Source of the DNA: an uncultured Pseudomonadales bacterium
Lineage (GTDB): Bacteria; Patescibacteriota; Microgenomatia; UBA1400; PJMF01
NCBI GenBank assembly: GCA_964491115.1
Contig: CAZBEW010000004.1
Coordinates: forward strand, 1-61,416
Direction of reading: 5' to 3'
Length of the DNA stretch: 61,416 nucleotides
This document shows positions 47,974 to 60,485 of the stretch, piece after piece (position 1 is the first letter of the stretch; every line of letters begins with the position of its first letter). The position numbers and the translations under genes were made by a program. Below the pieces are notes generated by a model. That model was not told where the DNA came from. It was given only the letters and a program-made list of their open reading frames with translations, and did not search any database.

Positions 47974-48939
47974 TTAAAAGCCAAAGAGCTTTAAGATGAT
48001 ATATATTGCATAGAGAGCAATCATTAATATTGATTCTTTGCGCTCAAATTTGTTTTTACTCAATAAAAAGAGCACCGCTATAATCGTCGTAAAGAGCAAG
48101 TAGGGCACATCAAACAAGACCAATTGCCGATTAATTTCCCAACTAGTAATAGTGCCACTTACCCCCAATGCTAAAAAAACATTCAAGATATTGCTGCCAA
48201 TTAAATTGTTTAAAGACAGGGCAGTTGATCCCTTCCTCATGGCCGTAATTGACACCATTAGCTCTGGCAAACTACTGCCCAAACCAACCAAGAGAATACC
48301 AACCAGCACTTCATTAATGCCCAAGGTTTCAGCGATCAACACCCCATTGCTTAAAACCATTTGCGAGGCTTTAAATAAAATTAGCAAGCCTAAAATTAAT
48401 TGGAAGAAACTCAAATAATTAATTTTTTGAATTTTCTTTGTCTTTATTTTTTTATTATTTTTAAAAAGCAGGCTTTGTTTTTTTAAGTTTTGTCGATTTA
48501 AAAAGAGCAAATAAACAAGATAAAAAAGAATTAATAATATTCCGTCTTGTTGATTGATGATGCCATCCTGACCAAGGAAATAAAATATTGTGTTCGACAT
48601 GACCAACATTAACATGTCTAACAATAATTCGCTTTTTTGCAGTTTAATCACTTTTAACAAACCCACAATGCCTAAAATTAAGGCTAAATTGGCCATGCTT
48701 GAGCCAATGACATTACCTATCACTATTGGACTAGAATCGATGCCATTTAATTGGCGAATTGCCCCAGTGACCGCAATAATAATTTCTGGAAAACTTGTCC
48801 CAATTGCCACAATAGTTAAGCCAATAAAACCCTCTGACAAGGCCAGTGATTTGGCAATTTTGATGGCTGCACGCGTGACTATTTCTGCCCCCAGCCACAA
48901 CAAAAACAAAGCAATAAAAAATAGCACAAAATTAGACAT
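47974..48939 (-). CDS. Ca2+/Na+ antiporter (CaCA, YrbG-like)
   Basis: Alpha-1 repeat VAIGTSFPE..GNVIGSSMAN and alpha-2 repeat VGLGSSLPE..NLIGSNILN. Confidence 0.92.
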   Translation of the reverse strand: MSNFVLFFIALFLLWLGAEIVTRAAIKIAKSLALSEGFIGLTIVAIGTSFPEIIIAVTGAIRQLNGIDSSPIVIGNVIGSSMANLALILGIVGLLKVIKLQKSELLLDMLMLVMSNTIFYFLGQDGIINQQDGILLILFYLVYLLFLNRQNLKKQSLLFKNNKKIKTKKIQKINYLSFFQLILGLLILFKASQMVLSNGVLIAETLGINEVLVGILLVGLGSSLPELMVSITAMRKGSTALSLNNLIGSNILNVFLALGVSGTITSWEINRQLVLFDVPYLLFTTIIAVLFLLSKNKFERKESILMIALYAIYIILKLFGF

Positions 48940-48949
48940 TGCTTACATT

Positions 48950-48994
48950 AAAGCAGAAAACCCCATAAGTAATCAAGAGAGGGTGAGCGAGTAA
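48950..48994. repeat. att-like repeat copy A (distal)
   Basis: 31 bp identical to 58574-58604, 40/45 over the extended match; includes a decayed tRNA-Gly 3' end (tgagcgagt). Confidence 0.9.
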
Positions 48995-49156: not shown

Positions 49157-49801
49157 CTAAGGTGATACATGATCATCTTGAGTATACTCGTCACCGTTTT
49201 CATTTCTACCCGTAAGTTTATATTTAGTAACTTCTGTAGAATTAGGATTCCTTTTAACACCCTGTTTTATATCATCAAGTTCTGAAGAAGCTAAATCTGC
49301 TAAAACGTCTGGTGGAGTAGAAGGATTATTCGCAGCAATTAATTGTGACCAAGCATTGTAACTTCTACCAGCACTTTCTAACAGTTCAGAAGGGGTATTC
49401 GGATTACACAGGGCAAGTGTTCTTACAATTGGATTCTCATCTCCAACTAATAACTCAAGTGCAAACTGATCTTGAGTATTAGCTGCCTCCTGCCTTTTTT
49501 TATCTACACTCCATTGGCGCATGTTTCTTGCTGTACTTTCAATTGCTCGATCAAGTTCTGATAATAAGTTGTCTGTATCCTCAATAATCCTTTCGGTATG
49601 AGTATCAACTGAAAAATCGCCTTGTTCTTTTCTAGAAGCTAGAGCACTTGAGTTTTCCTCATGAGGTAACTGACTTAGTAGAGAATCAATTTCCGCAAGA
49701 CTCAATGATCCCTGCCTCTCATTAGAACCTGATGTTTTAGACAGAGGCTCTCTGCCGTTATCAGAAATAGTTGCTTCGGTGGGTTGTTGAATTTCGCTCA
49801 T
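49157..49801 (-). CDS. Hypothetical protein with LRV/HEAT-like NPxTP repeats
   Basis: ALCNPNTPSELLE, AANNPSTPPDVLADLA, VKRNPNS at about 24-26 aa spacing. Confidence 0.6.
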   Translation of the reverse strand: MSEIQQPTEATISDNGREPLSKTSGSNERQGSLSLAEIDSLLSQLPHEENSSALASRKEQGDFSVDTHTERIIEDTDNLLSELDRAIESTARNMRQWSVDKKRQEAANTQDQFALELLVGDENPIVRTLALCNPNTPSELLESAGRSYNAWSQLIAANNPSTPPDVLADLASSELDDIKQGVKRNPNSTEVTKYKLTGRNENGDEYTQDDHVSP

Positions 49802-49834
49802 ATCAAATAGTCTCTACATATAGAATAACATTTT

Positions 49835-52800
49835 CTAGTCAAAAGTATCATCAATTTGCTGTTCAATTTTGTCAAAAAATCTTTGAGAAAGCTGTTCTGC
49901 TCTAGGTACAGGAATAGCGTTTGGTCCAAAATGTTCATGTATGGTATCGGCTCCACTTTGTAGTCCTATTCCAGTAATAACCATGTCTCTTCTAAAATTA
50001 TTAATTACCCCAGGAATAGATCCCTCACATACCATACCGTCGGTTAGAAAGAATACAAAATTATAAGAATGAGTAAACTGATCTGCATAATTTTGAAGAC
50101 TTTGGCATGCGGCAGTGAGAATCAACTCATCATTTTGGTTGCAAATAGATGCATCCAGCAATACAACTTTAGCCAAATCCTCCCCTGATATGTCCTGATC
50201 AAATGTCTTAAGAAACCTGTAACCACCTTCTGTAAAAATTAAAACTTCAAACGGTATATCAAGTCTTTTAGTTAATTCAACAAGACCAACTGCCAACTTT
50301 TTTTCAGCTTGAATAACTCCACCTGCGGTTGATCCTGTGTTATCTAAAATAATACTCCAGCAAAATGTTGGTTTTTCTGGATTAAGCTTTCGTTCAAACG
50401 AATTCGGTCTAAGTACAGTTTTACCCTCAAGTGTGCCTAATATATTGCGCTGCCATGCGTTCTGCAATCTTGAACCATGTAATTGATCTTTGGTCACTTG
50501 ATATTCTTGATCAAGATTGAATCTTTCAGTAAAAAAGTCAGTAGCTTCATCAATAAATTCATGAACATCTTCCATATATTCCACATATGTGTCCAAAGCT
50601 TCACCGTCAAGTCCACTGAGCTCTTGGTAATAACTCCTCAAATCGTTCTCTTGAGACTGTTTCACCTTTTCTAATTCTGCAATTTGTGCCCGTTGAGACA
50701 AAATAAGCCGATCTTTTTGCTGCTGAATTAGTTGTTGTGCTACTTCTTCATCAGTTTTTTTGAGACCAAAGTTTCCCTCTTCATTCCGTTCACCAAATTT
50801 ACTACCCAAAGTGTCATTAAGCTCATTTAGTTCATCAAGCATCCTATTACGTCTTGAATATTGAACTCCCTGACCTTCGTTCTGACCGACTCCGCCAGGT
50901 TGTTCTTGTGTACCTGCCTGGATATCTTGTCCTGGTTGAAGATTTCCTTCAGCCATTTGACTTAATTGATCACTCTGGCTGTCTGCCAAAGAGTCTTGTT
51001 GAATTTGTGATTGCCCGTTAGGTTGATCGGAAGTTTGGTTAGACTGACCCATTCTATCGCTAGACTGATCCTTGCTGCCGTTATCAGCGCTTTGTTCTGC
51101 CATCATACCAGCTTCAGTGCTTTGACCACTTTGTTGGTCCAAGTTGCCATTCTCTGAATGTTGACCTTCTGGCTGGTCACCGTCTTGTCGATCTTGGTTT
51201 TCTTGTGCTGATTCTCCCTCAAGTTGTCCTTGATTATCTGGTAGCTCAATTTTTGATGCCTCCCACAAATAGTAGAAGTTTTTAGGGTCATGTTGCCCGA
51301 ATTGATTCAAACGATCGAGATAGATTTGTTCAGCAAATGGAGCACGATCTGTTGCATTCCAGATTACTGGCATACTCCTACGATAAAATTCGCCCCATTC
51401 AATAGCTCCTGGCGGCACGGGGATAGACTTGCTTCCAGATCCTCCTCTATACCAAAACCTACCAATGGGCTTTGGAAGATTAAAATTAACTAAAAATGAA
51501 TCTTGGTTAAGAAGGGAATCGATTCCCAAACCATCCTGCCTTCCTAAGAACTCTGTAGCAGCTTGTTGGCTGTAAATGGAGAATGAAGGCAAATCATACC
51601 CGTGATCCTTCATCTGTCCAATAATCTTATCGGTGAAATTGGGGTTATATTGCTGATATGCATTCATAAGCAATCTCATTACTGATCGATACGTTTTTGA
51701 TGTGTTTTTAGCAAATTCCCTGACATTTTCTAGCGTCTCTAGTTGTTCAGGTGTAAGCTTACTTTCATCAATTCCAAACTCCGTAATGTTGTAAGTCATA
51801 GGCTCTTCATCTTCTTCTGCCACTGCTTTTTCAAGATCTGCTTCGGAAAATTGGTTTGCCACTTCCTGTAGTTGTTCAAGCTCTTCTTTCAGGTTTTGAA
51901 GTTCATTCTTGACTTGTTCACCATCTGTTTTTTGTTGCAGTGTTTCTTGCATCTGCTCTTGCATTTGACTAGCCTGTTGAGCAATCTCCTGCATTGAAGA
52001 TAATTTTTGTTCTTTTGGACTGGCGGGGCGTGCTTGTGCTTTTTCGAGTCGTTTTTGAATTTCTGTAAGTCGATCATTTAACGCTTCAGCTAGCAGGTTT
52101 TCTGCTTGGATTCTTTCAATACGTTCTTGAGGACTTATTTCTTCGCCATGTTTCACACTACTTTGTTCAACATTAGTGTCTGAATCTTGGAGAGTACGGT
52201 TCATTGCTTCGAGTTCTTCAGGTGATATTAGAGAAACAAGTTGGGGAAAAATCCCATCCTTAATCGTACTAGCTTTTCTTCTAGGATTACTTGTTTTTAC
52301 AGCATCATTAATTTGATCTCTTAATTCTGGCGTAATCGCTTCTTTTACTTTCAGACTAGACTTAGTAAGTGCCTCCTCTACGATTTCTGAAGCAATGATT
52401 CCTATCCTCGAGAGTCCTTCCAAAAAGGTAATATCGATTGCTTGTCTAAATGGGGAGCGATCGCCAATTGATGCTACCATCTCTCTCACATTTATCTCGG
52501 TTTCATAAAGCGCACGAAAGTTATCTTGAGGAGTAGAACTATGACTGTTCTTCATCTCTAAATAATCAACTGATGGGCTGTGAATTGCTTGAGCTAAGGC
52601 CGTTGCAATTTGTGGTGGTAAATCCTGATCTTTTGCCCAGCTACTTAATTCGGACAGGTATCTTTCAAACGGATAATTGAGGTTGCCTATTTCGTGCCGT
52701 AAACGGGCATTAACAACTCGCAGGTCAGTTTTTGCTAAATAACCCTCAGGATAGGTAATAACATTGGGAACACCATATACATTGTCTTGAGTCATGCCCA

Positions 52801-52984
52801 CCGACCACTCGTCTCCGGCAACGGCGTGAAGCTGAATTTTTCCACGCAAACCTCTATCTTCAATCTCCTGAGTAAATCCATGAGCAAGAATTGGAATTAA
52901 TTCGTCAACTTGGCGAGTTAAGTCGGTTAAATCTCTTTCAGGTTTTTTGGCTTCTTCTACACGTGCTGTCTGAATTTCTGTCAT
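49835..52984 (-). CDS. Large vWA-domain protein (CobT-like architecture)
   Basis: C-terminal IILDNTGST (MIDAS-like) and FFLTDG; Q/S/D-rich linker; coiled coil; N-terminal RHEIGN. Confidence 0.8.
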   Translation of the reverse strand: MTEIQTARVEEAKKPERDLTDLTRQVDELIPILAHGFTQEIEDRGLRGKIQLHAVAGDEWSVGMTQDNVYGVPNVITYPEGYLAKTDLRVVNARLRHEIGNLNYPFERYLSELSSWAKDQDLPPQIATALAQAIHSPSVDYLEMKNSHSSTPQDNFRALYETEINVREMVASIGDRSPFRQAIDITFLEGLSRIGIIASEIVEEALTKSSLKVKEAITPELRDQINDAVKTSNPRRKASTIKDGIFPQLVSLISPEELEAMNRTLQDSDTNVEQSSVKHGEEISPQERIERIQAENLLAEALNDRLTEIQKRLEKAQARPASPKEQKLSSMQEIAQQASQMQEQMQETLQQKTDGEQVKNELQNLKEELEQLQEVANQFSEADLEKAVAEEDEEPMTYNITEFGIDESKLTPEQLETLENVREFAKNTSKTYRSVMRLLMNAYQQYNPNFTDKIIGQMKDHGYDLPSFSIYSQQAATEFLGRQDGLGIDSLLNQDSFLVNFNLPKPIGRFWYRGGSGSKSIPVPPGAIEWGEFYRRSMPVIWNATDRAPFAEQIYLDRLNQFGQHDPKNFYYLWEASKIELPDNQGQLEGESAQENQDRQDGDQPEGQHSENGNLDQQSGQSTEAGMMAEQSADNGSKDQSSDRMGQSNQTSDQPNGQSQIQQDSLADSQSDQLSQMAEGNLQPGQDIQAGTQEQPGGVGQNEGQGVQYSRRNRMLDELNELNDTLGSKFGERNEEGNFGLKKTDEEVAQQLIQQQKDRLILSQRAQIAELEKVKQSQENDLRSYYQELSGLDGEALDTYVEYMEDVHEFIDEATDFFTERFNLDQEYQVTKDQLHGSRLQNAWQRNILGTLEGKTVLRPNSFERKLNPEKPTFCWSIILDNTGSTAGGVIQAEKKLAVGLVELTKRLDIPFEVLIFTEGGYRFLKTFDQDISGEDLAKVVLLDASICNQNDELILTAACQSLQNYADQFTHSYNFVFFLTDGMVCEGSIPGVINNFRRDMVITGIGLQSGADTIHEHFGPNAIPVPRAEQLSQRFFDKIEQQIDDTFD

Positions 52985-53006
52985 ACATATAAGTTGCTTT
53001 AACTAT

Positions 53007-54974
53007 TTATACCCTAATTTGTTCGGCCAATATGGTATTTAGTGCCTGGGTATCTATCTGACCTTTTTTGTAAGTTAATGTATGTGGAAGGTAGGTTAAT
53101 GCAATAGAGTACGCTGCAGCATTCCAGCCAGCTTTATAATTTGGCATTGAACGTAAATCGGCAGCCCACAAGTGATTCTCAGAGTAGAATTTAGCCGCTT
53201 CAATGGAACCTCTTAGGGAAATATCACGCTCCATACGAACGTCGCCAGTCCTTGTTTTCTTGGCGCGTACTGTTTCTCTAGTCTTATTGGCAATAAAAAT
53301 AATACTCTTAAGGTCTTGAATGACACGAACTAGTTCAGGATCAACAATTATGTCACTACGTTCATTGTTAACCACTTTATGCCACATCTTGATAAACTCA
53401 TCATCGGGTATATCTACAAGAGGAGTTATCTGCGCCTTTAATATCAACGCTTCGTCATGAGTGAATCGTTCATTACCAGTGTATGGATCTTTCTCCCTAA
53501 GTGGAGGATATCCAATTTGCATTGCGTTACTTCTATCATCAATTGTCTCTGGCAAGTTTTGAACACCTTCATAATCTGCAGGATTCATAAGTCCAACAAT
53601 TGCCACGCCAGGAGCAGACTCAATTACTTCATTGTTTAAGAAAATAGCCCTGTCATGATCAAGTAGAGAATTAAAGAATTTTGACACTGCTGGATTTAGT
53701 AGGTTTACTTCATCAAACTCTAATAGTGAATTGGGAGTTGTAATAGCTGTAATAATTCTTGAAGGTATTTTTACTACTTCACCATCTTTTAAAATTATGT
53801 CATACGTCAAATCATATTCAGTCTTATCTGGAGAGCATGCATATCTAAACAGTGGTCGCTGTGATAGAGCAGCGTAATGCTCAGTAAGCTGATTCTTGCC
53901 AGTACCTCTTGGGCCAACAATTACAGTCATTCCTTTTGCTTTGAGCTTTGTCCACTCAGGGGATTGACCTGTTTCAACAAGCCTTTCTAATTCTCGATTA
54001 TTTCCCAATCCTATCTGACGATTAACCAATTGAGCAAACCAAGCCATACGCTCCTCAAAGTATGGAGTCATCTTGAAGTGGGGGTCAATCTTAGGTATAT
54101 GACCATTACCATCAACATCCATTTCTTGTAAAAACGTACGTGTGGAAATAATCTCAGCAACTCTTTGACCAAACCCTTCCAAATCATCAACTTTGTGTTT
54201 ACTAACATCTACAATTCCCTCAAGATTACCTAATGCTAATTGACCAATTTGATTTGCTAATTGGGTGGCTCGCTGGTCGTATTCGGCTAAATCGGGGTTT
54301 AGCTGTTCATATTCAGTCTGTAAGCGAGATAACTCCCCAATCACTTCGTTAAAAGCTCTTAACTCACTTGAGCCTTCTAAGACGTTATCAATGGCTGGGA
54401 GACGCTCGCCCTGTCGTTCTCCCCAAGTGATCACATCACCAGGGCCAATTGTGTCTGGTAAACCATACTGCCTTTTCTTTTCGAAGAAAACATCTGACCA
54501 CTTTCTTCCACCATCAACATATAATTTCCCAGCGATAGCTTCCCATTCAGATTTATCTCTTGGTGGTTGGCAAACGGGAATCTTGGCTGCTCCAACTGTA
54601 ATATAGGGTAATCTATCAGCATTAGATATTTCTCCAGAACCTTCTTCATTAATGACTTCTTGTAAAACATCTGGACCACCAGCTCTTTCTACTTCATCTC
54701 TTAATCTTTCAAGCTCCTCTTTTATAAGACCCATTTGATTCTCTAGGGTGGTTATAAAATCAGCCTTGCTTCTCCCGTCTGTTGAAGTCCATGTGTCAGA
54801 AAGCTTGCGGGCTCTGGTTAAGCCTTCAGATAATTTAGTGTATTTACTTTGAAGCAAATCAAAAGGAGACTGCGCTATTTCCGCATCTTCACCCTCAATT
54901 TTAGGCACAGGAACAACTTGTTCAGTTAGTTCTGATACTTTTGGCTCACTATAGATTCCAGTTATTTCAGACAT
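53007..54974 (-). CDS. MoxR/AAA_5-type AAA+ ATPase with long N-terminal extension
   Basis: Walker A GPRGTGKN (53892-53915), Walker B LLEFDEVN, sensor I GLMNP, IDDRS, lid ISLRG. Confidence 0.88.
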   Translation of the reverse strand: MSEITGIYSEPKVSELTEQVVPVPKIEGEDAEIAQSPFDLLQSKYTKLSEGLTRARKLSDTWTSTDGRSKADFITTLENQMGLIKEELERLRDEVERAGGPDVLQEVINEEGSGEISNADRLPYITVGAAKIPVCQPPRDKSEWEAIAGKLYVDGGRKWSDVFFEKKRQYGLPDTIGPGDVITWGERQGERLPAIDNVLEGSSELRAFNEVIGELSRLQTEYEQLNPDLAEYDQRATQLANQIGQLALGNLEGIVDVSKHKVDDLEGFGQRVAEIISTRTFLQEMDVDGNGHIPKIDPHFKMTPYFEERMAWFAQLVNRQIGLGNNRELERLVETGQSPEWTKLKAKGMTVIVGPRGTGKNQLTEHYAALSQRPLFRYACSPDKTEYDLTYDIILKDGEVVKIPSRIITAITTPNSLLEFDEVNLLNPAVSKFFNSLLDHDRAIFLNNEVIESAPGVAIVGLMNPADYEGVQNLPETIDDRSNAMQIGYPPLREKDPYTGNERFTHDEALILKAQITPLVDIPDDEFIKMWHKVVNNERSDIIVDPELVRVIQDLKSIIFIANKTRETVRAKKTRTGDVRMERDISLRGSIEAAKFYSENHLWAADLRSMPNYKAGWNAAAYSIALTYLPHTLTYKKGQIDTQALNTILAEQIRV

Positions 54975-54980
54975 ATAAGT

Positions 54981-55385
54981 TTATGTTTGCTCAACAACTC
55001 TTTTTAATTCTTGTAAAAAATTTTCTACCATCTCTGATGCCTTATCTGAGTAATGCACAATAAGCACTTTATCTTGAGGCACAACTCTCAGATGACCCTC
55101 ATATCCAGGCACACCAAACAACCATCTCCCTAAAGTGTCAACTCTGATTATTTCACCGTTCTTATCGACCCCATATCCATCGCTCTGTATTTCCGTCTGA
55201 TAGGAAGGTAACTTTCTGGCTTTTTCATGAAGATAAATGCTGGCTGTCACACCTAGCGACTTTGGAGCCTGAATCGCAAGTGTTTTGTTTAGCGGTTGTA
55301 GCTTCATAGGGAAGTATATTTTTTCCATAGTGTTCTCACAGAAATTATCTCTTTCCATTATTACTATTTCTTTGCATAAAAACAA
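54981..55385 (-). CDS. Small hypothetical protein in the MoxR-vWA operon
   Basis: Fills the gap between the 1012-aa gene and the ATPase; stop 6 nt before the ATPase ATG. Start uncertain (55385, 55358 or 55328). Confidence 0.65.
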   Translation of the reverse strand: MFLCKEIVIMERDNFCENTMEKIYFPMKLQPLNKTLAIQAPKSLGVTASIYLHEKARKLPSYQTEIQSDGYGVDKNGEIIRVDTLGRWLFGVPGYEGHLRVVPQDKVLIVHYSDKASEMVENFLQELKRVVEQT

Positions 55386-55454
55386 GGTTAAAACACTACA
55401 AACAATAGGTAGGAAAGTTTGGTGTAAATATTGAAGACTTGCTCAAAAAATAAG

Positions 55455-58400
55455 TTATTTATCAATCTCTGATATTAGTGATGACAGTAGAAAAGGATAT
55501 TGAATGATTTCTTCAACGCTAAACCCAGCCCCAACAACCTGTTCTGCTAATTTTTCACCATTTTTGTGTCTGGCCATAATTGAAATAATTTCTGGTTTTT
55601 CTGGAATGCCTAATCGCTGAAGAGTGTTATTACTTACAACATTAAGAGCATCATACAAACTAACATCGTTCTCGACTAAATACAGTGTGGTGTCAAATCC
55701 AAAACGTTCAATTGCTCTTGTTACTCTGTAAGTGTCATTTTTTGCCAACATGCTCAATTGCTCGAATGTGTAGCTAATCGACTTGCCTTCAAGTGTTTTT
55801 CTAACATCTGTGGCACTGCTTAAGCGGACACCATTACCAATAAACCTTTCAATTTCATCCATTGAAAATACTTTCAAAGCTGTGGACAATTCGTATCCTT
55901 GGGTGTTAACCGCAATTTGAACAGTTTCTTTGAAGTCCTTCTTAACTTGATGTTCAATCAAAACTGAGTTGATTTCAGAATAATGACTGTAAGTAACCCC
56001 ATTCCTTAATAAATCTTTTGCCCGATCTAAAGATAGGTGACGCAAAGCATCTGAAAAATTCTCTATGTCCATATCATGATTTATATAGCCAGCAATACTA
56101 ATGACCTCAGAAATTGGTAGGTTGTGACCATACCCTTTTGCGATATCTGCTACTTGAACAGCATATTCTAAAGCTGAGTCAGAGGAAATTAATGACTTAG
56201 TATCATCCAATCCAAATCTGTCTAGTGATTTGCTCAACCATTTACTCAAATCATCATCTCTATAATCTTTAACCTGTCCTGCTAACTCTTGAAGAGCAAC
56301 AGTGGTCAACTCATGTCCATGCTCCCTCATTGTCCGCTTCACTGCAGTAAGAACATATAAATTAAGTCCTTTATCCAAAGATTCTTGAATTTCGCCTATT
56401 GAAAACTCCTTAAGTGCTTTGTGAAGACCTTGATGTCTTTTACCAGCAATGTCTTTAATTACATCTAAGGGAACTTCAACTCCGTTTTGTTTGAGCATTG
56501 ACCCAACCCTGACTAACTTCTGAAGTAGTTCGTGTCCGTATTTTTCTTGTTTTGCTTGTTCGACAATTCTTCTCATCCTGTCAAAATGAACTCTATTTAT
56601 TTCTGTATTACCAAGAAGAATATCAATAATTGACATGGCAATAACGGTTTCTTGGCTTACTCCTCTCTGTAATGCCTTGTGAGCCCTGTTAATAGTCCCT
56701 AGTGGGGTATAATTAATCCAGTCGATAACGCCCTCTAAAGATTGTCCAGTTGAATGGCCGTATTGATCTTTTTCTGATTGAAAAGCAAAGTGTAGGTCAA
56801 CAGCCTTTTGTGCTAGGCTTTTGTGTCTCTCATGTTTTTCTTTAAGAACTTCTTGTTTAGCTTTCAATTCTTCTATTAACTGTTCTGGTGTTCTTGTTCT
56901 CAATCGGTGAGTTTCAGCAAGGTAATTTTCAGAAAGGGTTCTCTCTATCATTTGATGTTGAGCTGTAAGGCTCTCTAACTGTAGGGTTCTTTCTTCTTCG
57001 GGTAATTCTAGACTAAGAATATTTGCTTTCCTTCTTTCAAATCTAGCTATTAGAGCATCTTGTTTTCTTTGAAATTGTTTTTCAGAAAGAGTCAGCTCTT
57101 TCGCAGTATGACTAAGTACCCACTCGTCTCGTTCGGTTTGTTCAGAAGGTAGGTGTTCAAGTTGCCAGTGAATTTTCCGAAGTTCTCTACCATACTGATC
57201 GTCACCTGCTTTTCCTATAAACCGTCCAATATTATGTAAATCTACCCCTCGAATTTTTTGTCTCATTCCGCGCAGCTGCCTTTGAACTGGCTCACCGAGA
57301 CGAGCCCATGCTATAGATTCTCGTAGCCCTTGTGCCTTATCACTAGACATGCTTGAGTATGGGGAACCCTGAGAACGTCCTGTGTTGTTATACTCCATGG
57401 CCTTCGTATACCACTTTGCAGCCAGTAAAACCGCCTCATGCTCTAGCTTTTGAGGGTCTGTTTTAGCTAAATCTTCCATATCTTTTGACCGAGTTACCTC
57501 TCTGTAAGCAGCACGATATACCTCCCTGAGCACTGGGTAAGCCCCAATATTCTCACTTCCGTGATAAATCTCAGAGTGATAACCAAAAAGATTGGGCATA
57601 TGCTCTGTTGAAGCTTTATGCCCCTCATCACTAGAATTGTTTTGTTGATTTTTAACTCTACGCAAAGCAATATCGAATGCTGCTAATTCAGGAGTTCCTT
57701 TCATTTCTGCATACAAAATATTCCTACGCAAACCAGTGGCGATGTTTTCTGGATGAGCGTCTTCTGCTGAAATTGGCTCATCTACTTGAATATATTTACC
57801 TTTGTTATAATCCCATTGTTTATTTGTCCTAATAGCTTTTCCTTCAATAAAATCACGATAGAAATTAAGTTTTTTGGTTAAGTATCTAGTACCAGGCTCC
57901 TCAGAACTTAAAACTGCCAAAGCTGCATCCGCTATTGGCATCCCAGCCAGTAGCTTCAACCTTACTATTTTGTCCTCAGTCTCTAAGTATCTTTCTATAG
58001 ATTGTGGTTCCCTGGGACGATCATCAATGAATTCAAACAAATGACTATATTCTCGCTTTGCTCGATCAACATCCATAACTTCAGAATGTTCCAACTCTCC
58101 TGGTAAAGGTTGATCTCCATATTTGTAATCTATTAGTCCCTGGGTAAGTGCTTCCTGCAAAGTCAATTTTTGATGTCTCTCTCTAGTTTCCGCTGTTTGA
58201 GCTTTTTGTGCTCTTTGCTCCTCATGTTGTGGGTGTTGTCCTCGTCCTATATGTCTTTTTTCCCGCCCTGTAACATGCCCACTATGCTTAATAAAGTCAT
58301 GAGTAGTACGATGAGGTTCTTTGGGTTTTCCTGAAAGAACTGATTTCATTCTTTGCAAGAAGTGAGATAGTGGTGGGGTAGATTCATTCACTTTTTCTTG

Positions 58401-58493
58401 TTCAAGTTCTTGCAAAATATCATCAGTTTCAGGAGACTGCTGTCTTATCTGTTGCTCAAGTTGTGATTGGTTCGGTTCTGAAACTTCGGCCAT
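55455..58493 (-). CDS. Large hypothetical protein with C-terminal ~55-60 aa helical repeats
   Basis: 1012-aa ORF with acidic N-terminus, His-rich patch, coiled coil and about six tandem repeats at 55458-56520. Confidence 0.8.
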   Translation of the reverse strand: MAEVSEPNQSQLEQQIRQQSPETDDILQELEQEKVNESTPPLSHFLQRMKSVLSGKPKEPHRTTHDFIKHSGHVTGREKRHIGRGQHPQHEEQRAQKAQTAETRERHQKLTLQEALTQGLIDYKYGDQPLPGELEHSEVMDVDRAKREYSHLFEFIDDRPREPQSIERYLETEDKIVRLKLLAGMPIADAALAVLSSEEPGTRYLTKKLNFYRDFIEGKAIRTNKQWDYNKGKYIQVDEPISAEDAHPENIATGLRRNILYAEMKGTPELAAFDIALRRVKNQQNNSSDEGHKASTEHMPNLFGYHSEIYHGSENIGAYPVLREVYRAAYREVTRSKDMEDLAKTDPQKLEHEAVLLAAKWYTKAMEYNNTGRSQGSPYSSMSSDKAQGLRESIAWARLGEPVQRQLRGMRQKIRGVDLHNIGRFIGKAGDDQYGRELRKIHWQLEHLPSEQTERDEWVLSHTAKELTLSEKQFQRKQDALIARFERRKANILSLELPEEERTLQLESLTAQHQMIERTLSENYLAETHRLRTRTPEQLIEELKAKQEVLKEKHERHKSLAQKAVDLHFAFQSEKDQYGHSTGQSLEGVIDWINYTPLGTINRAHKALQRGVSQETVIAMSIIDILLGNTEINRVHFDRMRRIVEQAKQEKYGHELLQKLVRVGSMLKQNGVEVPLDVIKDIAGKRHQGLHKALKEFSIGEIQESLDKGLNLYVLTAVKRTMREHGHELTTVALQELAGQVKDYRDDDLSKWLSKSLDRFGLDDTKSLISSDSALEYAVQVADIAKGYGHNLPISEVISIAGYINHDMDIENFSDALRHLSLDRAKDLLRNGVTYSHYSEINSVLIEHQVKKDFKETVQIAVNTQGYELSTALKVFSMDEIERFIGNGVRLSSATDVRKTLEGKSISYTFEQLSMLAKNDTYRVTRAIERFGFDTTLYLVENDVSLYDALNVVSNNTLQRLGIPEKPEIISIMARHKNGEKLAEQVVGAGFSVEEIIQYPFLLSSLISEIDK

Positions 58494-58573: not shown

Positions 58574-58618
58574 AAAGCAGAAAACCCCATAAGTAATCAA
58601 GAGAAAATGAGCGGGTGA
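58574..58618. repeat. att-like repeat copy B
   Basis: Matches copy A; its last 23 nt match the tRNA-Gly 3' end and flank (59332-59354) at 21/23. Confidence 0.9.
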
Positions 58619-58691
58619 GAGGGGGAGTATATTAAAAAATATGAAAGTTTAGACTAAAAAAGAGGAATACAACAATTTCCTGCTCACTGTG

Positions 58692-59315
58692 TTATTTGAT
58701 TATTGATTCCAACAGTTCAATTACCTCATTTTCTGCAAGACCAACTGTTTCAATGTCGAAGTTTAAGCCCTGATAACTAAAAGTGGAAATATACATTTCA
58801 TTATAATTTCCTATTTTTACTTCTATTCCTTTTATTTTTGAAACTTCAAGTGGCTCATCACCTAGGAAATAATCTCTTAATGGCTCAAAATCTTTGGAAA
58901 AAGCAACAATGATGTGTTTTTCAATTAAACCATCATTACTTGGCTCACTTTCATAATTCACAACATAATCATGCAATATGTTGTATGGAGCATTTTGATA
59001 ATCTTCCTTGTTTTCATCAAGTTTTTTGGTATATATCAAATATTTTGATTTAATTGTCAAACTACTAGGCACTTTTATATCATCTAGAAAAGTATACTCA
59101 GTAAATCTTTCTTTAACGTTTATATCAGTATCATATTTAATGTCTGCATCTAAATTTGCAGCTGCGATTTCTTTTAGATAATTTATTTTAATTGTATTAG
59201 CAGACGGTGTTGTAAAACTTTTTTCTTTCTTATTTTTAAATACAAATATTCCAGCAATAATTAATAAAAGACATATGGGAATTAAGAAAGATCTAAACCA
59301 TTTATTGTTTTTCAT
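58692..59315 (-). CDS. AT-rich single-TM hypothetical protein (cassette gene)
   Basis: Perfect AGGAGGA SD (59321-59327) before ATG 59315; N-terminal TM; lies between att copy B and the tRNA. Confidence 0.8.
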   Translation of the reverse strand: MKNNKWFRSFLIPICLLLIIAGIFVFKNKKEKSFTTPSANTIKINYLKEIAAANLDADIKYDTDINVKERFTEYTFLDDIKVPSSLTIKSKYLIYTKKLDENKEDYQNAPYNILHDYVVNYESEPSNDGLIEKHIIVAFSKDFEPLRDYFLGDEPLEVSKIKGIEVKIGNYNEMYISTFSYQGLNFDIETVGLAENEVIELLESIIK

Positions 59316-59345
59316 TTTATTCCTCCTTTTTATCAAGAAAAAGTG

Positions 59346-59416
59346 AGCGGGTGACCAGAATCGAACTGGCCTCTTCTCCTTGGAAGGGAGATATACTACC
59401 GATGTACTACACCCGC
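59346..59416 (-). tRNA. tRNA-Gly(TCC)
   Basis: GCGGGTG/CACCCGC acceptor, TCTCC-CTTCCAA-GGAGA, AGTTCGATTCT; CCA not encoded. Confidence 0.95.
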
Positions 59417-59498: not shown

Positions 59499-60485
59499 TC
59501 AAGGCGATATTTTTTTTAAAGCTTTTTTTAGTGCACTAGCTTGAATAGTTGGCAAATCGCTAGCATCCACAAAACCAAACTGCGCAAAGGGTCCTGGATC
59601 GCCTTTCAACACAAAAGGGGTAACTGCCACAACCCGCTCGTCACTCCAAATATTTTTGAGCGCATAGGCATAATAATCGCTTAAATAAAAATTGATCATG
59701 TAGCTTGATTTCCAGCCAGTTTCAGTAATAAATGTTTGAAAATCTCGACCCGTTTTGTTTTTTAAAAAATTTAATTCATAAATAAAGCCTTTTAAAGAAT
59801 TTTGCCCATTGGTCTTGGGCGAGGCTGAAAAGTTTGGATTTGGATAAGAATGAGAATTCCAATAGTCAATGTAAGTAAAAATCTCTGGGTCAACACGAAG
59901 CATTGTTTCTAAATAGCTAAAAGCTTCCATGGTTGGAAAAGTATTGGCAGTTGCTAAATCCAGTGCTGCTGGCAAAACTTTATAATTTAAACCCTCACTA
60001 CGCAACCAATTACTAGTAAATTTTAAAACCTGCGTGTAAGCAAGCGGATCAATTTTGCCACCCCATTCTTGAGCGTGATTAACTTCATTAAAAACGACCA
60101 CTAATTTTTCCTTTCGATGCCAATTTAAACTTGATAAAAAAGCAACCAAATTAACAATTTCTTTGCGCGTGGGGATTGTCCAATGGTGTTGCTCACTGTC
60201 ATAGCTGGTCGCTAAACGAATAATCGGAATCAATTTAAGCCGATAAGCTTCATCAAAAAATTGTTGCCAGCGTTGCCAATCTTGCGTATCGCTAGTAGCT
60301 AGGGGAATGGTGATGTAGCGCCACTCATCATCCTCAAAAATCATGCGCACTTGCTTAAGTTCTTCTGGTTGCAAAATATGCATGCCTAAAACATCATTTT
60401 TTGCCCAAACGTCTTTTATGCCAAGTGCTAAAAAACAGAGCAAAATAAAAAGATTCAATAATATTTTAGATTGATGTTTCAACAT
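59499..60485 (-). CDS. Exported clan GH-A-like TIM-barrel glycoside hydrolase
   Basis: Signal peptide; VVVFNEVN (acid/base) and FITETGW (nucleophile), HSYP. Confidence 0.7.
   Translation of the reverse strand: MLKHQSKILLNLFILLCFLALGIKDVWAKNDVLGMHILQPEELKQVRMIFEDDEWRYITIPLATSDTQDWQRWQQFFDEAYRLKLIPIIRLATSYDSEQHHWTIPTRKEIVNLVAFLSSLNWHRKEKLVVVFNEVNHAQEWGGKIDPLAYTQVLKFTSNWLRSEGLNYKVLPAALDLATANTFPTMEAFSYLETMLRVDPEIFTYIDYWNSHSYPNPNFSASPKTNGQNSLKGFIYELNFLKNKTGRDFQTFITETGWKSSYMINFYLSDYYAYALKNIWSDERVVAVTPFVLKGDPGPFAQFGFVDASDLPTIQASALKKALKKISP

Follow-up and report, generated by a model that had tools for sequence, protein, structure and literature searches.

Five genes lying head to tail on the minus strand between positions 49157 and 58493 of the window (the whole stretch of DNA analysed here, 61,416 nucleotides, equal to positions 1-61416 of an 81,427-bp contig) form a real, rare and mobile operon of the ultra-small Patescibacteria, or Candidate Phyla Radiation (CPR). 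The operon, referred to below as the cassette, encodes in order of transcription a large protein with helical repeats and a conserved C-terminal tail (A), a small protein (B), a predicted AAA+ ATPase of the MoxR class (C), a putative adaptor with a von Willebrand factor A (vWA) domain (D) and a protein ending in LRV repeats (E). We give an even chance to the proposal that these proteins constitute a self-contained, mobile MoxR-vWA remodelling machine, which would act on its own tail-bearing partner. The genome that harbours the cassette (G000) comprises 798,531 bp in 38 contigs and is estimated to be about 95% complete; a genome size near 0.8 Mb is typical of Patescibacteria.

A conserved five-gene unit in Patescibacteria

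Gene A (55455-58493) encodes 1012 residues, B (54981-55385) 134 if a TTG start codon is used, C (53007-54974) 655, D (49835-52984) 1049 and E (49157-49801) 214, separated in this order by intergenic gaps of 69, 6, 22 and 33 nt; all positions within the cassette refer to the minus strand. An earlier interpretation made from the letters alone (the sequence-only reading) had picked out these five open reading frames as a co-oriented set with gaps of 6 to 69 nt, and both coordinates and spacing were confirmed. The longest hydrophobic run in each of the five proteins is at most 8 residues, and all are acidic, with isoelectric points (pI) of 4.5-6.3. Consequently, none is predicted to carry a transmembrane segment or a signal peptide, which bears out what had been claimed, and the five proteins are expected to be cytoplasmic.

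The same gene order was found again in approximately 40 independent loci from at least nine CPR lineages, so that the arrangement of A to E does not reflect chance. Relatives of C number at least 110 after clustering at 90% identity; they align over their full length at roughly 45-75% identity and, where a source is named, derive almost exclusively from Patescibacteria. A scan of one genome per species returned 31 loci among 185,579 species, located in Magasanik-, Zambryski-, Parcu-, Pacei-, Morani-, Peregrini-, Gracili-, Sacchari- and Falkowbacteria, together with a few short contigs in non-CPR bins. Of the 42 loci compared, all contain C, while 40 contain D, 38 B, 35 A and 30 E, and the order is A-B-C-D-E throughout; many of these loci are cut by contig ends, which account for most of the missing genes. 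The three accessory genes thus co-occur with the ATPase-vWA pair well beyond the window, in keeping with the single module that had been proposed, and no further gene family recurred with the cassette across these diverse loci. Divergence from the window copies is uneven, being fastest for A (33-49% identity) and E (34-41%) and slowest for C (52-74%). Searches of the literature returned no description of the five-gene cassette, and scans of the five proteins and six sub-domains with Pfam, NCBIfam and PADLOC recognised only AAA_5 and LRV.

The tree of C comprises three clades. The first holds the window copy together with those of loci L002, L063 and L064; the second unites Saccharibacteria and, on long branches, one variant each from a Peptococcaceae and a Synergistaceae bin; the third mixes Parcubacteria, Magasanikbacteria, Gracilibacteria and Peregrinibacteria. 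The loci from a Peptococcaceae metagenome-assembled genome (MAG; L030, 7147-15079) and a Synergistaceae MAG (L031, 9620-15123) encode C, D, E and a tail-bearing protein, with neither the body of A nor B. The tail-bearing protein measures 634 residues and lies downstream in L030, and measures 168 residues and lies on the opposite strand in L031. Short cassette contigs were also found in bins assigned to Gammaproteobacteria, Bdellovibrionales and Desulfosporosinus (L007, L009, L010 and L036); at least the first three sit on short branches within the Zambryskibacteria/Parcubacteria copies of C, and all four most likely represent binning errors rather than transfer.

The ATPase C

Residues 351-481 of C match Pfam AAA_5 (PF07728; E = 2.4e-17; 63.7 bits, the cut-off being 22), a domain carried by all 110 relatives. 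The 655-residue protein had been described as an AAA+ ATPase with a Walker A motif near residue 354, and the motif, GPRGTGKN, was indeed located at residues 354-361 (53892-53915). A Walker B motif of the hhhDE type is present at D421-E422 (53709-53714). Both motifs fall in invariant columns of the alignment of 15 sequences, as do several arginines, and the residue after the P-loop lysine, an asparagine (GKN) where serine or threonine is usual, is equally invariant. From these features C is assigned to the MoxR-type AAA+ ATPases of the CbbQ/NorQ/GvpN group, with intact Walker A and B motifs and with a lid following its AAA_5 core. A partly coiled-coil extension of about 350 residues had been proposed ahead of the core. 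The extension itself stood, as a conserved segment of 340 residues with the motifs IPVCQPP..EWEAV.GK, KPGE and LNPD and no match in Pfam; its coiled-coil character found less support, residues 200-246 or thereabouts being helical and coiled-coil-like with weak matches to coiled-coil families.

The nearest solved structures to the family profile of C are NorQ (9qh4, E = 2.9e-12) followed by CbbQ (5c3c, 6l1q), in each case over the AAA core only. In the NCBIfam scan C matched GvpN only, at 13.6 bits against a cut-off of 266.8, and it falls outside the NorQ and CbbQ equivalogs. With a likeness to NorQ and CbbQ that is limited to the core, and with a conserved N-terminal extension of its own, the ATPase lies outside the characterised subfamilies with known clients, as the sequence-only reading of a new module had supposed.

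The adaptor D

The vWA identity of the window copy of D is drawn from homology and from the metal-ion-dependent adhesion site (MIDAS) motif, since a Pfam match of its own is lacking. Matches to PF00092 were obtained for 8 of 14 aligned relatives (best E = 2.7e-6), and the same family is pre-assigned to several database relatives; over 330-430 residues, the C-terminal part of D shares 44-50% identity with three aligned relatives. The MIDAS motif, D881-N-T-G-S885 (50330-50344), has D881, N882 and S885 invariant in the 14 relatives, as are T981, D982 and G983 further downstream, the MIDAS partner residues. On these grounds D is assigned a C-terminal vWA/MIDAS domain, and the earlier description of a 1049-residue vWA protein is supported by the invariant columns and by the relatives. 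The domain is terminal in all 14 relatives and ends in a nearly invariant TFD.

Ahead of the vWA domain, D consists of a conserved N-domain (residues 1-250) with an invariant RHEIGN / NARLRHEIGNLNYP motif, a coiled coil, a conserved alpha/beta middle domain (residues 395-580) and an acidic, Gln/Gly-rich, disordered linker of about 200 residues (580-780), the length of which varies greatly among relatives. In a Gracilibacteria chromosome (L005/L017; 1.93 Mb, genetic code 25) D reaches 1692 residues, its linkers swollen by long tandem acidic repeats of the ESINGEDRASKE and GSSESSGE types. An AlphaFold2 model of residues 1-600 reached a predicted local distance difference test score (pLDDT) of 83. 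The top Foldseek matches of this model, which are non-significant, were selecase minimal zincins (probability 0.35-0.41, E of about 2-3) and BlaR1; as a weak lead, the invariant RHEIGN helix might be that of a 'degenerate zincin'.

The small proteins B and E

Homologues of B start at about residue 20-27 of the open reading frame, and the gene-caller version in the protein collection is 108 residues long; B is therefore likely shorter than the frame, its true start probably being M20 or M27, which would give 108-115 residues. The family comprises 222 clusters, all of hypothetical proteins of 106-136 residues, and is marked by the invariant motif GRxLFGVPGxxGHxR; no relative of B was found in Pfam or the PDB. 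Protein E combines an acidic helical N-terminal part with C-terminal LRV repeats. Residues 153-171 match Pfam LRV (PF01816) at 25.9 bits against 21.6, with a weak match to LRV_2 as well, so that the LRV-like label given to E earlier passes the family's gathering score. Profile searches of the PDB with A, B, D and E gave low-complexity or coiled-coil matches alone and nothing meaningful. One candidate from the acidic part of E (residues 35-100 or so, window positions 49500-49700) resembled Pup, a protein that binds the coiled coil of an AAA+ partner; the match (Pfam E = 0.043; Pup chains in the PDB, E = 0.1-0.3) was judged probably compositional and rejected.

Protein A and its C-terminal tail

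The AlphaFold2 model of A has a pLDDT of 85.6 and a predicted template modelling score of 0.69. Residues 1-140 are disordered. They are followed by an N-module (residues 140-635; 56589-58076), delimited from alignment and model, which bears most of the invariant residues, including the motifs GTPE, SPY, RGMRxKI, RFIGKSG and KSLAQKALDLHF, and which is modelled as mostly helical, its features including a single beta-hairpin and a long helical arm that resembles a coiled coil. The description of A as a repeat protein was confirmed, residues 694-984 forming 5.5 helical repeats of 56-63 residues each. The last 28 residues (985-1012; 55458-55541), VVGAGFSVEEIIQYPFLLSSLISEIDK, were recognised in the family alignment as a separate tail.

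No other short segment of A is as strongly conserved as this tail: 8 of the 42 invariant columns lie within the last 24 residues. Over 20 tails, among which G, F, E, P and S never vary, its consensus reads AGF[ST]x[ED]E[IL]xx[FY]P[FY]LxSxL plus a further 3-8 residues. The number of repeats in homologues of A ranges from none to more than five; the homologue without repeats (L063, 683 residues) consists of the N-module and the tail, and the tail thus outlasts repeat loss. Profile-profile comparison further showed that the tail ends proteins otherwise unrelated to A, of 505 residues in L015, 526 in L006, 634 in L030, 189 in L002 and 168 in L031. A search with the tail profile through 13 whole carrier genomes (about 14 Mb) returned 16 matches, one or two per genome, every one of them encoded by a cassette. 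A is the only tail bearer in the genome of the window, and the tail is found on no core component of the cassette. The sequence-only reading had cast A as client or sensor of the module, and this gains indirect support from a tail that is common to every variable cassette partner and absent elsewhere in the 13 genomes.

In the Gracilibacteria chromosome mentioned above, two tandem paralogues of A (1044 and 1045 residues) are present, both bearing the tail. The A family counts 154 representatives at E ≤ 0.001 among 1.84 billion proteins and by this measure is rare. The N-module also heads larger proteins of 1300-2333 residues that are devoid of the tail, for example P0233 (1414 residues) and P0245 (2333 residues). 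P0245, the sole giant of this kind with its context checked, has no AAA gene nearby and gave an empty Pfam scan; inspection by eye of the C-terminal parts of P0233 and P0245 suggested GNAT-like motifs (in P0233, for example, YRGKGL and YQKQGHG) as well as a D-T-x-C-C-M motif common to both.

The best structural match to A in Foldseek was BurrH, a protein like the transcription activator-like effectors (TALEs), with E = 1.4e-3 and a template modelling score of 0.13-0.17; designed helical repeats ranked next. A repeat region as acidic as this one (pI 5.2, net charge -13) is unlikely to bind DNA in the manner of a TALE, and that interpretation of A was rejected. A search of BFVD with the model returned only long helical tail proteins above E = 1e-3 and no convincing fold match.

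A proposed cassette-encoded partner rather than a host client

Among the known clients of MoxR-vWA pairs, COX1/NorB (PF00115) and CobN/BchH (PF02514) were found in none of the 13 carrier genomes, and the large subunit of RuBisCO (PF00016) was absent from G000 and from 10 of the 12 others, two of the 13 being positive; positive controls were detected in reference genomes. The earlier statement that none of the usual clients is encoded alongside the pair extends, for these three clients, to the genome of the window as a whole. These absences weigh against a conventional explanation, in which the cassette would encode a maturation or cofactor-insertion chaperone, in the style of NorQD, CbbQO or CobST/BchID, for a host protein encoded elsewhere. 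The proximity of the C core to NorQ and CbbQ speaks for it, as does the layout of D, where an acidic linker precedes a vWA domain as in CobT and BchD. Yet no CobT or CobS_N match was obtained in Pfam, the N-domains of D match no fold of NorD or CbbO, and a congener whose proteins are 95% identical (G004) is devoid of the whole cassette, which implies that no core host process depends on it. We consider such a host chaperone very improbable.

The proposal favoured here instead places the target within the cassette. By analogy with NorQ-NorD and CbbQ-CbbO, C would assemble into a hexameric ATPase ring, onto which D would dock through its C-terminal vWA domain and its conserved TFD end, leaving the two N-terminal domains of D, on their long, acidic and flexible linker, to hold the target. 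That target would be a cassette-encoded protein rather than a host enzyme, in the present case A, marked by its 28-residue helical tail. The invariant glutamate of the tail could complete the MIDAS metal site of D; alternative receptors would be E, the N-domains of D or the N-terminal extension of C. Hydrolysis of ATP might then change the state of A by activation, assembly or release of its N-module, with B and E serving as accessory adaptors. A model for how the tail glutamate might be read is offered by Rea1/Midasin acting on Rsa4 and Ytm1, where the MIDAS domain of an AAA_5-type motor grips a small client element via an invariant acidic residue. Midasin, though, is a giant eukaryotic protein whose one chain holds six AAA modules, and the likeness drawn here extends to domain classes only. 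The analysis demonstrates the domain identities, the conservation of the five genes as a unit, the confinement of the tail to cassettes, the insertion and the lack of known clients; the ring-adaptor-client arrangement, the component that reads the tail and the biological role are inferred.

Several observations weigh against this proposal. In the model of A the tail is no disordered degron but helical and packed as a half-repeat cap, resembling the first half of a sixth repeat, with a pLDDT of about 87 falling to 73; it may simply cap the structure or make a homotypic contact, and not serve as an address label. The GKN form of the Walker A motif in C is unusual and might bear on catalysis. No Pfam VWA match was obtained for the window copy of D, even when its C-terminal 249 residues were searched at E ≤ 10, and Foldseek comparison of the D 1-600 model with the PDB gave nothing below E = 1. 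As the N-domains of D resemble no NorD or CbbO structure, the analogy of D with these adaptors is architectural only. No nuclease, protease, TIR, pore-forming or other effector-type enzyme domain was recognised in A to E by Pfam, NCBIfam or PADLOC. Finally, in one Saccharibacteria lineage the cassette occupies a fixed housekeeping neighbourhood of the chromosome, and this stable residence indicates that it is not always element-borne.

Insertion beside tRNA-Gly(UCC)

In the genome of the window, the cassette is a recent insertion beside a tRNA-Gly(UCC) gene (59345-59416, minus strand; identified with ARAGORN). C was absent from 60 related genomes, among them all seven of the same genus. In each of these seven congeners the gene flanking the tRNA side of the island (59499-60485 in the window) lies next to the Na+/Ca2+ exchanger gene (47974-48939), at a distance of 166-648 bp that includes the same tRNA-Gly(UCC), and the corresponding interval in the window spans 10.6 kb. 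Two copies of a 43-nt direct repeat, 91% identical and spaced 9,624 bp apart, bracket A to E, one at the tRNA-side junction (58574-58616) and one at the exchanger-side junction (48950-48992), and define an insertion of 9.6 kb. A repeat search placed a first, shorter copy at 59332-59354, formed by the 3' end of the tRNA gene and its trailing bases, so that three staggered copies are present. The mobility on which the sequence-only reading had relied is hence borne out by a repeat-bounded insertion set against an empty site in seven of seven congeners.

The closest reference for the junctions is G004, with its 95% identity in the flanking proteins, in which about 69 nt separate the end of the tRNA from the start codon of the exchanger gene. 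Compared with this empty site, the left part of the window's upstream repeat is native-like, and the right part of its downstream repeat runs into native sequence identical to that of G004, which locates recombination in a core of some 30 nt common to both copies, CTCTTGATTACTTATGGGGTTTTCTGCTTT. A further unit, 736 bp long, occupies the stretch from the tRNA end to the second repeat copy (58619-59345), where G004 has only 13 nt. It carries a single gene on the minus strand (58692-59336) for a protein of 214 residues that has one N-terminal hydrophobic segment and no Pfam match, and that is part of the island though it stands outside the five-gene system. In view of this additional unit the tRNA-Gly site looks like a repeatedly used integration hotspot, occupied by two integrase-free cassettes in tandem. 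No recombinase or integrase is encoded between the 43-nt repeats, A to E being the sole open reading frames there and none of them containing a recombinase domain; flanking direct repeats of at least 16 nt were found at none of 22 other loci.

Elsewhere the cassette travels with identifiable elements. The closest relative of the window copy, 74% identical in C, is flanked by VirB4/TrbL/TrbC genes on one side and by genes for a relaxase, a coupling protein and a serine recombinase on the other. On CPR-type metagenome scaffolds from ENA (L002/L003, 1-22040) the cassette is surrounded by a complete set of conjugation genes, for a VirB4-like ATPase, TrbL, TrbC, a Replic_Relax relaxase, a TraG/TrwB-like coupling protein and a serine recombinase, a gene content that identifies an integrative conjugative element in a group from which few have been described. 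In L042 (5425-21959) and L043 the cassette is situated between a tyrosine integrase and genes on the opposite strand with weak matches to the phage-tail families SPP1_Dit and TMP_2, and probably rides as cargo in a prophage, at its integrase end.

These surroundings raise the possibility that the cassette serves its carrier element, by aiding establishment or counter-defence or by delivering the tail-bearing protein, in which case the tail would be a signal for export or transfer. Substrates of type IV secretion typically bear C-terminal signals, and the tail, placed at the extreme C-terminus of varied proteins, would suit such a function, as would the position of the closest relative amid conjugation genes. 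Against this, most loci are free of type IV secretion genes within 10 kb and no conjugation gene recurs; the tail follows C, D and E rather than secretion genes; the window's own cassette has neither transfer nor recombinase genes; and no relative was found among INPHARED phages, IMG/VR viral contigs or PLSDB plasmids beyond distant CbbQ/NorQ proteins. Service to the element is in our view improbable, and the remodelling of a cassette-encoded partner is retained as the favoured account.

Comparison with known MoxR-vWA systems

The cassette is most readily compared with NorQ-NorD and CbbQ-CbbO. The AAA_5 core of C is nearest to those of NorQ and CbbQ, and the adaptor gene lies directly downstream, D starting 22 nt after C and the pair being found in 40 of 42 loci. 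D itself resembles NorD and CbbO in layout, with N-terminal domains and a flexible linker ahead of a C-terminal vWA domain with MIDAS, and with conserved residues at the extreme C-terminus. For NorD, a published account describes contact with NorQ through the vWA domain and the C-terminus, and remodelling of a linker in NorD by the NorQ ring (PMC13036017). In contrast to NorQ and CbbQ, C is twice as long, with its conserved 340-residue extension and its GKN Walker A motif, and the N-domains of D, unlike those of NorD and CbbO, have no detectable likeness to any solved structure. The cassette differs further from NorQD and CbbQO in its three additional conserved genes A, B and E, in a partner with a cassette-specific tail, in its mobility and in the absence of NorB and Rubisco. 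With CobS-CobT and BchI-BchD it shares the combination of an AAA+ motor and a partner whose C-terminal vWA/integrin-I-like domain follows an acidic linker of low complexity, whereas no Pfam match to CobT, CobS_N or Mg-chelatase was obtained and CobN/BchH is missing from the 13 carrier genomes.

A third comparison is that with the VMAP/iSTAND conflict systems, which likewise join a MoxR-vWA pair to a third, fast-evolving and largely alpha-helical component and show a patchy, mobile distribution. A short shared module that ties variable proteins to a core also recalls the effector-associated domains of such systems (Kaur et al. 2020, PMC7159879). Unlike them, the cassette has no VMAP-C or inactive STAND domain, its tail is absent from the core components, and the vWA domain of D is terminal with no effector domains behind it, a layout opposite to that described in PMC7159879. 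VMAP-C (PF20028) was absent from the five proteins and from the whole genome, the genome search being one in which control genomes gave no match either. The hosts differ as well, being unicellular reduced CPR organisms for the cassette and multicellular actinobacteria or cyanobacteria for VMAP/iSTAND.

Possible biological roles

MoxR-vWA conflict systems are established (PMC7159879; PMC13622651), and this precedent underlies the suggestion that the cassette defends its host against phages or other elements by a ternary MoxR-vWA logic, A acting as sensor or effector through its N-module and C and D gating it, with abortive infection or interference as the outcome. The rare and patchy occurrence described above would fit such a role, as would the recent insertion at a tRNA-linked hotspot, the carriage by a conjugative element and the further copy beside an integrase and phage-tail genes. 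In addition, A and E diverge fastest and C slowest, and some loci adjoin either a weak Cas_csx3 match together with MJ1673 or Ntox44/DUF5412 genes. Several results nevertheless argue against defence. PADLOC-DB v2.0 contained no model that matched, the two best matches being short stretches (LmuB, E = 0.004, on the coiled-coil part of C; PDC-M15B, E = 0.014, on E), so that a search for a catalogued defence system came out negative, and VMAP-C is missing from the genome. D offers no effector domain beyond its terminal vWA, no effector domain of any other kind was detected in A to E, and one Saccharibacteria lineage keeps the cassette in its fixed housekeeping setting. We regard defence of this kind as unlikely, though a serious candidate. 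In the Gracilibacteria chromosome L005/L017, the distance from the cassette to the toxin-immunity genes Ntox44 and DUF5412 on its downstream side is 1-3 kb.

On present evidence the biological role of the cassette is most likely a conflict or element-benefit function, in favour of which its mode of travel and its patchy distribution speak; the lack of a recognisable effector and the stable residence in one lineage advise caution against any firm claim. The defence or host-interaction role deduced from mobility in the sequence-only reading remains a candidate. At its most far-reaching, the favoured mechanism could describe a mobile, tail-addressed system of a new class, powered by ATP, in which a portable 28-residue tail commits otherwise unrelated cassette proteins to a MoxR-vWA-LRV machine that switches them on or off. 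No conflict or immunity system particular to the mobile elements of CPR bacteria might precede it, and the N-module of A could supply a fold new among effectors or sensors. We hold this far-reaching reading as a whole to be unlikely.

Implications

MoxR-vWA pairs are widespread, and clients are known for few of them, namely NorQD, CbbQO, RavA-ViaA and the chelatases. In the cassette a probable client would travel with its motor, marked by a tail; if this is true, target recognition and remodelling become testable with five proteins and one peptide. For four of the domains involved, namely protein B, the N-module of A and two domains of D, the N-terminal and the middle one, neither Pfam nor the PDB offers a recognisable relative. 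The cassette belongs to the few conserved multi-gene accessory modules common to distant CPR lineages, the animal-associated Saccharibacteria included. As cargo of a CPR conjugative element and as an instance of tRNA-linked integration, it is of interest for gene flow, and for possible conflict systems, in these organisms.

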